Shown piece after piece: positions 1 to 1,614 of a DNA stretch of 16,029 bases. Numbering within the stretch: the stretch's first letter is position 1; the number at the start of each line of letters is the position of its first letter. Made by a program: the position numbers and the translations under genes. The notes under the pieces were generated by a model. The model was not told where the DNA came from and searched no databases. It saw nothing but the letters and a program-made list of their open reading frames with translations. The stretch comes from a virus (taxonomy: Duplodnaviria > Heunggongvirae > Uroviricota > Caudoviricetes). Location of the stretch: IMG/VR virus record IMGVR_UViG_2684622579_000002; one strand, given 5' to 3'.

Positions 1-555
1 ATGCTTATTGGCTATGTACGTGTATCAACAAATGACCAGAATACCGATCTACAACGTAATGCGCTGAACTGTGCAGGATGTGAGCTGATTTTTGAAGACA
101 AGATAAGCGGTACAAAGTCCGACAGACCAGGACTGAAAAAGCTGCTCAGGACATTATCGGCAGGTGACACGCTGGTGGTCTGGAAACTGGACCGACTGGG
201 GCGCAGTATGCGGCATCTTGTCGTGCTGGTGGAGGAGTTGCGCGAACGAGGCATCAACTTTCGTAGTCTGACGGATTCAATTGATACCAGTACCCCAATG
301 GGGCGCTTTTTCTTTCATGTGATGGGTGCCTTGGCTGAAATGGAGCGTGAACTGATTGTTGAACGAACAAAAGCTGGACTGGAAGCAGCTCGCGCACAGG
401 GACGAATTGGTGGACGTCGCCCCAAACTTACACCAGAACAATGGGGGCAGGCCGGACGATTAATTGCATCAGGCGTTCCTCGCCAGAAGGTGGCGATCAT
501 CTATGATGTTGGTATATCGACACTGTATAAGAAGTTTCCGGTCGGAGATAAATGA
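1..555 (+). CDS. pin: Serine recombinase, DNA invertase of the Pin/Hin/Gin family (complete, 184 aa)
   Basis: N-terminus MLIGYVRVSTNDQ with the catalytic Ser context typical of resolvase/invertase enzymes; conserved RLGR and GRFFFHVMGALAEMERELI motifs; C-terminal HTH-like region (IASGVPRQKVAIIYDVGISTLYK). ATG at 1, TGA at 553-555. Confidence 0.85.
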   Translation: MLIGYVRVSTNDQNTDLQRNALNCAGCELIFEDKISGTKSDRPGLKKLLRTLSAGDTLVVWKLDRLGRSMRHLVVLVEELRERGINFRSLTDSIDTSTPMGRFFFHVMGALAEMERELIVERTKAGLEAARAQGRIGGRRPKLTPEQWGQAGRLIASGVPRQKVAIIYDVGISTLYKKFPVGDK

Positions 556-596
556 AACCGTAGCACGTCGTATGCAAGAAGATCGTGCTGCGGTTT
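555..596. repeat. Hairpin repeat copy A (about 13 bp stem with one G-T wobble, 16-nt loop tcgtatgcaagaagat) between convergent pin and GIY-YIG genes
   Basis: Positions 558-580 (ccgtagcacgtcgtatgcaagaa) match 1582-1605 (ccgtagccacgtcgtatgcaagaa) except for one inserted base. Stem arms 555-567 and 584-596 are complementary. Confidence 0.6.
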
Positions 597-615
597 ATGC
601 TTATCACTTAAAGAC

Positions 616-1389
616 TCAAAAATTAGGTGAGTAACGGACCGGGGACATAGCTCCTTTTTTTCTTAATTCATCTGGTATTTTTTTTCCAAGATAAAGATTT
701 GCTATTTCAGGTGGGGCTTCTCGACCTTCAAAACCATAGCGAGAACTTTGTGTTGCCTCAAAGTCCGGATCCTCGTCCCAGTATTTCATCGTAGGGAAAT
801 TTTCACGTGTTGATTTGAGCCATTTATCAGCAATGAAAACCCCTCGAACGATCCCCCTTACAGTAGCAAGAATGACTTCTGCTTGGCTGGCGCGAGAGAC
901 ATTAATGCGCCAGCTAAATCGAACTGCATCATAAAGCTCTGAATCCTTTGCACTTCTGTTAACGGAAATCATTAATGCTTTATGATGAAATGTTATGGTT
1001 TCGGGTTGATATGTTGCTATCAACTCTTTGACATGCGCGGCGCCGAATTCATTGCTGCCAGCACCATTCATGATATTCGTTAACCCAGGGTAGGCATCAA
1101 TAAGTGCTGCTTCAACTTCGTACGCCGTCTTTTCATCAGTCATTCCGTGTCGATGGATGACATGGATAACCTCAAGTCCTGCTAACCTTATTTCTCTAAT
1201 TTGCTTTAGCTTGTTGCTCAGTAACTCGTCATCATCAGTCGCTGCCACTTCACCGCGCATATGGGCAAATACGCGGTTACCTTTGCCTTTCCCTACATAG
1301 AAGGTGCTTCCGTCCCTCGGATCAATCAATCGGTATACATACCAGCCAAGGTGTTCAATTACTCCAGAAGGAAACTCAGTAATATCCAT
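616..1389 (-). CDS. GIY-YIG nuclease-domain protein (about 257 aa from the internal ATG)
   Basis: Minus-strand ORF 616-1440; N-terminal region [28 protein letters not shown] fits the GIY-YIG motif pattern. Start assigned to the ATG at 1387-1389 (MDITEF) because 1440 is a TTG; no strong SD at either. Confidence 0.55.
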
Positions 1390-1580
1390 TTTGCAATATC
1401 TATGAATTATTTGTGAGACGTATATTAATGAACATTGCAAGGGCTCACAACCAGTAGTGTTGAGAAAACCATCGGGGAAATGAGGCTAAGCCTTTGAATT
1501 TACATAGTACAAAAAAGATACTTTTCCTCATAATGTGAATTAATTTTATGTTTCGTTTGATGATTGGACCGGTCTCGAAA

Positions 1581-1614
1581 CCCGTAGCCACGTCGTATGC
1601 AAGAACGTGCTACG
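1581..1614. repeat. Hairpin repeat copy B (9 bp stem with one bulge, 13-nt loop tcgtatgcaagaa) upstream of the GIY-YIG gene
   Basis: Direct-orientation near-identical copy of the element at 555-596; stem arms 1584-1592 and 1606-1613. Confidence 0.6.

Follow-up and report, generated by a model that had tools for sequence, protein, structure and literature searches.

Why would a gene for a GIY-YIG nuclease lie between two nearly identical hairpins? This question is raised by a 16,029-nucleotide stretch of tailed-phage DNA (IMG/VR record IMGVR_UViG_2684622579_000002), the whole of which is called the window here. A first-pass annotation, made from the sequence alone, had noticed the hairpin pair and proposed that the gene was a self-contained mobile cassette, the hairpin being a nuclease recognition or homing site, a recombination site or a structured RNA motif. 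Our results mainly correct this proposal: the nuclease proves to be a defence enzyme that was already known, and it does not have the hairpins as its target. The explanation that we hold to be probable is that copies of this hairpin (HP1) mark the boundary between late and accessory genes of prophages, where they most likely serve as terminators, that the nuclease gene is cargo, and that the bracket arose by recombination between prophage ends. The gene is already known, and so is this type of arrangement, in which a moron or a defence gene stands at the end of a prophage and stops at a terminator hairpin. The part worth following is the hairpin family itself, which consists of two hairpins, is near-universal, is unannotated and coincides with strong RNA 3' ends in K-12.

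The hairpin pair and the gene that it encloses

Both hairpins with their common loop are indeed present, and in the described places. HP1 copy 1, a 'solo' hairpin at 555-596, lies between the convergent pin and nuclease genes, and it starts on the final base of the pin stop codon. It is composed of a 5' arm AAACCGTAGCACG, a loop TCGTATGCAAGAAGAT and a 3' arm CGTGCTGCGGTTT, and it has U-rich tracts on both strands (UUUAUGCUUAUC on the plus strand and UUUCAUUUAUCUCC on the minus strand). HP1 copy 2 (5' arm AAACCCGTAGCCACG, loop TCGTATGCAAGAA, 3' arm CGTGCTACGACTGG) lies at 1578-1619 on the minus strand, 189 nt upstream of the nuclease start codon at 1389; it is the hairpin of a complete HP2-HP1 element, and its stem is followed by UUUC on the minus strand. 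The repeat had been quoted as 23-24 nt, which is correct for that part, but in fact the whole hairpin is repeated, including the 3' arm. An exact 16-mer, ACGTCGTATGCAAGAA, is shared by the copies at 565-580 and 1590-1605, and there is no third site for it in the window even when up to two mismatches are allowed; its chance expectation is 0.01, and two matches occurred in none of 200 shuffles. The full 23-mer at up to three mismatches matches copy 1 only. Because copy 2 carries two 1-nt insertions, a 23-mer search and a gapless repeat finder both miss the pair.

On the plus strand, copy 1 folds with -22.5 kcal/mol (z -5.4) and copy 2 with -20.8 kcal/mol (z -2.8), and both fold on the minus strand too. 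A covariance model of HP1 (R2) gives 50.2 bits (E 1.5e-9) for copy 1 and 59.8 bits (E 5e-12) for copy 2. Copy 2 has also an alternative, slightly more stable fold (1590-1620; -20.8 kcal/mol), in which GUCGUA of the loop pairs with UACGAC of its unusual 3' arm; this arm is present as well in locus L101, the empty site described below.

The gene preceding copy 1 (1-555, plus strand) is the last one of a tail-fibre/invertase block and encodes a pin-family, pinE-like DNA invertase (Pfam Resolvase, 1.3e-51, and HTH_7); in matching genomes it is annotated as pinE. A likeness of the hairpin region to hix/gix sites was considered and rejected, as the spacing is wrong by our own reading of the sequence. 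A protein-coding reading was rejected as well: a 74-aa open reading frame at 1500-1724 (minus strand) and HK629 gp27 both span the hairpins, but indels in the stems break the frame, and short versions of the element have in-frame stops upstream, which also speaks against coding.

The enclosed gene (616-1389, minus strand, 257 aa) was assigned by PADLOC, PDB and Pfam (LEM-3_GIY-YIG) matches to PD-T4-3/CMoRE, a GIY-YIG type IV restriction endonuclease. The PADLOC model PDLC04031 (PD-T4-3) matches from end to end (residues 1-256 of 256, E 2.4e-140), and the solved 'GIY-YIG domain-containing protein' of E. coli O157:H7 (9U75/9U8D) matches over residues 1-257 (E 3.7e-172 for 9U75), so that the likeness is full-length, extending from the N-terminal GIY-YIG domain through the C-terminal modification-sensing domain. 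PD-T4-3, a single-gene defence of Vassallo type, has been characterised as CMoRE, a type IV restriction enzyme dependent on 5-hydroxymethylcytosine or its glucosylated form (5hmC/5ghmC) (PMC12923530; PDB 9U75, 9U7U). Close homologues cleave 5hmC/5ghmC DNA and protect against T-even phages (PMC12923530; bioRxiv 2024.12.20.629700), and CMoRE is active in a native host (bioRxiv 2024.12.20.629700). Judged by its sequence, the window gene is a known anti-phage defence gene and not a self-mobile homing nuclease.

The cassette (window 600-1575) was found at 892 places in 853 of 5426 complete E. coli genomes. In O157 Sakai its counterpart is ECs_0285 of prophage Sp1, which adjoins pinE and is followed by the P4-like prophage Sp2, a layout like that of the window; only the downstream context differs, with a second hairpin and HP2 in the window and a tRNA-Ser fragment in Sakai. 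In the K-12 prophage e14, the slot after pinE holds mcrA, which encodes another type IV enzyme, and there is no HP1 at the pinE-mcrA location.

A widespread two-hairpin element

About 140 loci were gathered by scanning IMG/VR for the loop and genomes of GTDB for the downstream stretch, and HP1 was located by covariance model in about 100 loci; a loose scan for the loop motif was too noisy and was abandoned. The gathered loci show two adjacent hairpins, HP1 and then HP2, which together make up an element of about 100 nt (104 nt). HP1 has variable stems and a fixed 13-nt loop, TCGTATGCAAGAA. HP2 has the stem GGCTGG/CCAGCC (with variants ACTGGC/GCCAGT and GGCTGAT/ATCAGCC) and a fixed loop TTCGATAGTGCGAGTATTGAATGATT, and it is followed by GTTACCGATTnTAC. 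In the window HP2 lies at 1618-1662 (minus strand), with the stem GGCTGG/CCAACT and the conserved loop TTCCGATAGTGCGAGTATTGAATGATT, and a covariance model of both hairpins (R1) scores 104.7 bits (E 8.7e-29) at 1575-1678.

The stems covary. With a hand-drawn structure, both-sided changes were seen in 9 of 12 HP1 pairs and in 3 of 9 HP2 pairs; none of 500 shuffles reached the observed score, and slid controls were all far lower. In the covariance-model alignment of 71 distinct HP1 copies, which was fitted to the model and hence leans towards the structure, 88.4% of cells are paired and 8 of the 12 pairs have compensatory changes, and here too the observed score was attained by none of 500 shuffles. 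RNAalifold on a MAFFT alignment gave a wrong consensus, caused by a register shift at a bulge, and was replaced by the hand-drawn structure and the covariance models. The HP1 loop positions are 93-100% conserved, also in copies picked through HP2 only. The earlier suggestion that the conserved loop indicates a specific element is thus borne out, since the loop stays fixed while the stems change with compensating substitutions. Of the options then offered, a structured RNA motif fits, and a nuclease recognition or homing site is not supported.

The conserved block ends with a box, GATTTTGC (1669-1676, minus strand), which reads CAAAAT on the minus strand and stands at the site of a conserved -10-like motif, TAnAAT. 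At this site, about 7 nt before HP2, [T/C]AnAAT is found in 53 of 58 distinct flanks, with all four bases occurring at n, and beyond it the flanks fall into unrelated groups. A 'long version', recognised by sequence identity and common to lambda, HK629 and others, extends the conserved stretch over 1677-1780; its identity to lambda-type phages is 83.8% over 197 nt, and the homology with L001 stops at 1780.

How common is this element? The 104-nt sequence is present in 5407 of the 5426 complete E. coli genomes (99.6%), at 17,545 places, with a median of 3 and up to 10 per genome, and it is almost never annotated; window positions 1577-1685 alone match more than 3000 E. coli genomes. The first-pass annotation had named wide occurrence of the repeat apart from any gene as a sign against its cassette idea, and this is what the counts show, with the element in 5407 genomes and the gene in 853.

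The last late gene, be it pin, tfa or another, has its stop codon only 1-10 nt ahead of HP1, and HP2 usually comes next. Where the arrangement is 'empty', one hairpin stands directly after the tfa or pinE stop codon and is followed by the conserved stretch. The host prophages are lambdoid and e14-like, and the element lies at the end of their tail-gene block. It is found between ea47 and ea31 in lambda-type phages and between a pin remnant and sib/attP in HK97, and also in phi80, mEp460, phiP27 and Stx phages, as well as in genomes of Shigella, Citrobacter, Kluyvera and Pantoea. There is also a chromosomal copy, in the ykgJ-ecpE spacer, which is kept even in a genome-reduced BL21 derivative. 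In K-12 (NC_000913.3), unannotated copies occupy 304210-304312 (L154 2211-2313) and 1632470-1632572 (L151 4469-4573).

Several smaller observations belong here. The remainder of the ykgJ-ecpE spacer resembles a dinI remnant, and this locus may be an old prophage end. EcsR2 was considered and rejected, as it belongs to a different spacer, yagU-ykgJ. The K-12 Rac prophage (L150 7725-7771) has a solo HP1 lacking HP2 near attR, after the reverse genes pinR, ynaE and ynaM. The sequence just before HP1 resembles the pin 3' end in HK97 (L006 2400-2500, GGGAGATAAATGA) and in HK629 (L005 ~2480-2500, GGAGATATGGTAG), and in these two phages an invertase may once have stood ahead of the element and have been lost since.

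No Rfam family exists for the element, and the sole match is a sub-threshold hit of copy 1 to CssrB (RF02799; 24.5 bits against a gathering threshold of 76, E 0.19), which covers the 3' hairpin only of a 180-nt model. There the terminal hairpin of the model aligns to copy 1 in both arms and loop, and a loop variant of CssrB type, CGTCTTAAGCAAGAACG, occurs in L128 and L130.

Given its high copy number (a median of 3 and at most 10 per genome), its hairpin shape and the bracketing, the element could be a generic mobile repeat, either REP/MITE-like or an ssDNA hairpin comparable to IS200/IS605 ends or integron attC. We consider this very improbable, because every examined copy has one position and orientation at prophage ends, or lies in the ykgJ-ecpE spacer, and among the examined copies none is dispersed in ordinary intergenic regions. 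Neither a Y1 transposase, nor a RAYT, nor an integron integrase is found nearby, and in the inspected copies neither the gene association nor the dispersal is that of REP/RAYT, IS200-IS605 or attC elements.

Cargo, empty site and junctions

In several unrelated cases, two same-strand HP1 copies bracket reverse-strand genes. PD-T4-3 is found behind pin (window, L001, L014, L040, L042) and behind tfa (L025, L078). Elsewhere the bracket holds ea47 (the lambda-type phage HK629, with a diverged HP1 directly after tfa and a full HP1-HP2 at the other side), a ClpP/SDH-like protease (L094), a methyltransferase dependent on S-adenosylmethionine (L128 and L130, with a tfa remnant before the second copy), a 121-aa protein (L053) or a DUF1440/YagU-like protein (L129). 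In L052 (9015-13231) and L104 (1252-5468) two further genes, for a Dcm-type C5 methylase and an EcoRII-type endonuclease, come after PD-T4-3 and ahead of the next HP1-HP2, so that three restriction-related genes are stacked there. The slot behind the tail-fibre/invertase genes is thus a hotspot where cargo and defence genes recur. One conserved hairpin frames its inserts and offers a simple sequence handle for finding prophage cargo.

The arrangement resembles the lambda b-region cargo and other morons (ea47), where one accessory gene follows the last tail gene, is transcribed in the direction opposite to the late operon and ends at a hairpin. It differs from phage morons in that the bracketing hairpin here belongs to one conserved family with a fixed loop and is not an arbitrary terminator, and in that the promoter of the cassette is putative.

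The empty-site comparison proposed with the first-pass annotation was carried out and yielded an exact empty site, locus L101, in which pin is followed by one HP1 and by HP2. Base for base, and for 137 nt at least, L101 is the 5' arm and loop of copy 1 joined to the 3' arm of copy 2 (CGTGCTACGACTGG) and HP2; what the filled form has in addition to the empty one is thus exactly one unit, from HP1 to HP1, of 1025 bp. L101 may be either the partner or a deletion product. The notion of a self-contained mobile cassette is therefore tenable in a loose sense only, in so far as the module occurs in several left and right contexts and has an exact empty site; the module carries no mobility gene, and self-mobility is not supported.

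The right junction proved informative. Homology of the window with many PD-T4-3 loci ends at 1587 or 1600, inside copy 2. In L016, L018, L028, L030, L073, L077 and Sakai Sp1, the flank continues as the 3' two-thirds of tRNA-Ser(CGA), which is the att core; this stretch is annotated as tRNA-Ser across E. coli, and the arrangement of PD-T4-3 plus tRNA-Ser occurs in 429 genomes. By flank comparison, a truncated remnant of this tRNA-Ser (CGA) att core, GGACCGGTCTCGAAA, lies at 1566-1580 (plus strand) of the window, fused to HP1 copy 2 through the shared sequence GAAA(A)CCG. The same junction is seen in L019, L052 and L121, and there a deletion begins at the HP1 loop. The truncated att core at this place points to prophage-end recombination and not to transposition or homing. 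From these sequence comparisons, we conclude that the bracket would represent joined right arms of prophages at a cargo hotspot, possibly followed by an exchange between HP1 copies, and that it is neither a target-site duplication nor a homing event; about 210 genomes have the bracketed form. The order of events that we infer is as follows: the right arm of one prophage, comprising pin, HP1, PD-T4-3 and att(tRNA-Ser), would have been joined via GAAA(A)CCG to the HP1-HP2 of another prophage, and with two HP1 copies present, HP1 x HP1 recombination could then add or remove the cassette.

A homing scenario, in which the GIY-YIG nuclease recognises the hairpins and spreads its own gene into HP1-containing sites, would account for the presence of the GIY-YIG domain, for the existence of both filled and empty sites and for the same cassette being found behind pin and behind tfa. 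Nevertheless, it is close to refuted. CMoRE/PD-T4-3 has a modification-sensing C-terminal domain and is specific for 5hmC/5ghmC DNA. A homing nuclease would be specific to its own empty allele, and here the element (17,545 places) is about 20 times commoner than the gene (892 places). Moreover, unrelated genes fill the same bracket, and most copies of the gene are followed not by a second hairpin but by the tRNA-Ser fragment mentioned above.

A connection of the element with site-specific integration has to be considered separately. Nakamura et al. 2021 (PMC8112680) described a 96-bp sequence within prophages, 'attB-in-PP_2'. It shares about 81% identity with the K-12 ykgJ/ecpE spacer and had served a lambda-like phage as an integration site. 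In record LC567841, we found a full element after nleC and before dinI, where attB-in-PP_2 is expected, and a degenerate copy with the HP1 loop deleted, 219 bp before the 21-bp attB-in-PP_1. An att block reaching from the HP1 3' arm through HP2 agrees with the block lengths given in that study (29 + 96 + 184 bp). Judged from distances only, the element, and with it the unit of about 100 nt, probably corresponds to attB-in-PP_2, the reported att site of 'prophage-in-prophage' integration; the two are alike also in homology to the ykgJ-ecpE spacer and in position at the cargo end of lambdoid prophages. That study treats the sequence as a DNA att site of chromosomal origin and reports neither hairpins, covariation or transcription, nor its presence in lambda and HK97. 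If the identity is true, the element is, much like a tRNA gene, an RNA unit that also serves as a target for integration. By functional analogy only, it may be likened to tRNA and tmRNA genes used for integration and to lambda OOP and sib, as a small structured RNA unit with an intrinsic terminator at a prophage end, which can serve as an att target and stands in antisense to a phage operon at the operon's 3' end.

Could the cassette itself then enter and leave by integrase- or invertase-mediated recombination at the hairpins, the element being its att site? The use of attB-in-PP_2 by a lambda-like phage (PMC8112680), the position of the element at the expected att place in LC567841 and the adjoining serine invertase gene, pin, speak for it. 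We regard it as quite improbable all the same, since the segment duplicated in the window is HP1 only, while the att block deduced above covers the HP1 3' arm and HP2; the 1-kb cassette carries no integrase, and illegitimate joining accounts for the tRNA-Ser remnant at the right junction. The sites on which Pin acts are gix sites, and these lie upstream of the pin gene. As to the integrase found beside the commonest right flank, it sits next to dusA and is of DusA type, so it was rejected as evidence of an att role.

Transcription across the element, and the rest of the window

What might HP1 do at this boundary? In lambdoid and e14-like prophages, HP1 would mark the border between the rightward late (tail-fibre/invertase) genes and a leftward accessory region, and we consider it most likely to be a Rho-independent terminator for leftward transcription, that is, on the strand of the GIY-YIG gene. 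On the plus strand an A-rich run precedes HP1, and on the minus strand a GC-rich stem is followed by UUU(U)C. The minus strand thus has the form of an intrinsic terminator, with copy 1 followed by UUUCAUUUAU and canonical copies by UUUUC or UUUUUC. A simple terminator scanner misses HP1, its loop limit being 8 nt.

For K-12 MG1655, a published Term-seq study (Adams et al. 2021, PMC7815308, supplementary files 1 and 3) lists 'orphan' 3' ends at two homologous copies. At the Qin copy they lie at 1632571 and 1632574 (plus strand of the chromosome), with about 3300 and 2150 reads, and at the ykgJ-ecpE copy at 304213 and 304212 (minus strand), with about 99,000 and 88,000 reads (PMC7815308). The ykgJ-ecpE end, which sits 31 nt before the ykgJ start codon, is outside the regions of Rho termination, and neither at 304213 nor at 1632571 was the effect of Rho significant (PMC7815308). 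In both copies, the ends fall in or just past the U-rich tract after HP1, on the minus strand of the element, opposite to the late genes. No plus-strand end is listed at the K-12 copies, which is uninformative, as the late genes of these cryptic prophages are silent; at the solo HP1 of Rac no Term-seq 3' end is listed. Base-pair variants within HP2-linked HP1 copies point to the same strand, as A.C mismatches on the plus strand, which are G.U pairs on the minus strand, number 51 against 20 G.U on the plus strand. Loop-edge variants such as CCTTATGCAAGAA keep their pairing on the minus strand only, by our own reading of the sequences.

In the arrangement that we favour, copy 1 would end the transcription of the PD-T4-3/CMoRE defence gene, and it probably ends that of pin as well, because it has U-rich tracts on both sides. 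Copy 2 would be a part of the complete unit of about 100 nt (TAnAAT box, HP2, HP1) upstream of the defence gene, and this unit would make or end a short leftward transcript. In our reading, HP2-HP1 is such a short leftward transcription unit with a putative start site, and the TAnAAT box, by its sequence, might be its promoter. The defence gene would then be cargo, or a 'moron', in a variable slot behind the late genes.

Several points weigh against this explanation. Copy 2 has only UUUC past its stem on the minus strand, and the intrinsic-terminator score of the ykgJ-ecpE end is 2.78, just below the cut-off of 3.0 (PMC7815308). The Term-seq ends come from K-12 homologues and not from the two copies of the window, at which termination would be expected by analogy. 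Such ends can also arise by processing. The G.U and A.C counts for HP2 and for solo HP1 copies favour neither strand, and no sigma-70 -35 box is recognisable with the TAnAAT box. The conserved 13-nt HP1 loop and the HP2 loop are unexplained by a terminator role. Finally, the CssrB model (RF02799) and a northern band of about 180 nt imply, in Shigella, a plus-strand RNA which ends at the hairpin. In four published sources we found no mapped transcription start for the HP2-HP1 element, and literature searches yielded nothing specific on a lambda late-operon terminator or on prophage small RNAs at tail-fibre ends.

The last of these objections leads to a plus-strand alternative, according to which HP1 is mainly a terminator or 3'-end stabiliser of the late-operon or pin mRNA, the two copies being late-operon ends of two phages; a small RNA derived from the 3' untranslated region, like CssrB of Shigella, could be included. 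On one hand, in every context only 1-10 nt separate HP1 from the stop codon of the late gene that comes last, the CssrB 3' hairpin matches copy 1 on the plus strand with the band of about 180 nt seen in S. flexneri, and solo copies have U-rich tracts on the plus side. On the other hand, GGCUGG rather than a U tract follows canonical HP1 on the plus strand, and the CssrB 3' end comes from a terminator prediction and not from mapping. In addition, whereas the CssrB model is on the late-gene strand, the K-12 Term-seq ends are on the minus strand only, although the late genes are silent there, and the wobble counts of HP2-linked copies favour the minus strand. We thus regard a mainly plus-strand role as unlikely, though it is compatible with a bidirectional one and partly overlaps with the leftward-terminator explanation.

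A further possibility, which we consider rather unlikely, is that HP2-HP1 forms an unnamed family of small-RNA genes transcribed in the direction opposite to the late genes. In almost every E. coli genome it would comprise the abundantly expressed ykgJ-ecpE copy and several prophage copies and serve, like tRNA genes, as an integration target, one that is carried and regenerated by phages. The conserved loops might pair with the complementary loops of late-operon 3' ends, and this would allow antisense control, or cross-talk when one lambdoid phage enters a cell in which another resides. If the unit is a functional small RNA, it would be among the most widespread unnamed ones in E. coli and would link RNA genes, phage integration and module exchange.

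The rest of the window lies beyond the leftward-terminator question. A DUF2971 protein (1886-2560) is a defence candidate (PADLOC candidate PDC-S31, E 3.4e-82). A P4-like satellite or island then stands in tandem with the pin-bearing prophage, as do Sp1 and Sp2 in O157 Sakai. Its att is a 46-nt 3' fragment of tRNA-Thr (thrW type; 3755-3800), directly upstream of a P4-like integrase gene (3896-5155); ARAGORN found no intact tRNA or tmRNA in the window. The element further includes an AlpA-like gene (6102-6392), a DUF5375 gene (7571-7954) and a Zn-ribbon/Toprim/DUF927 primase gene (7951-10623). Its cargo region holds two more defence candidates, a SMEK-domain protein (13123-14082; Aga_REase-PNTD, E 3.3e-41) and a 571-aa protein (14314-16029; PDC-M68B, E 1.4e-48). 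Inside the P4-like element, 6664-6735 (minus strand) gives a weak Rfam match to the antitoxin RNA SymR (31.6 bits against a gathering threshold of 61, E 0.012), and just after the primase gene there is a 19-nt inverted repeat (10652-10670/10824-10842), 95% complementary, with arms 153 nt apart.

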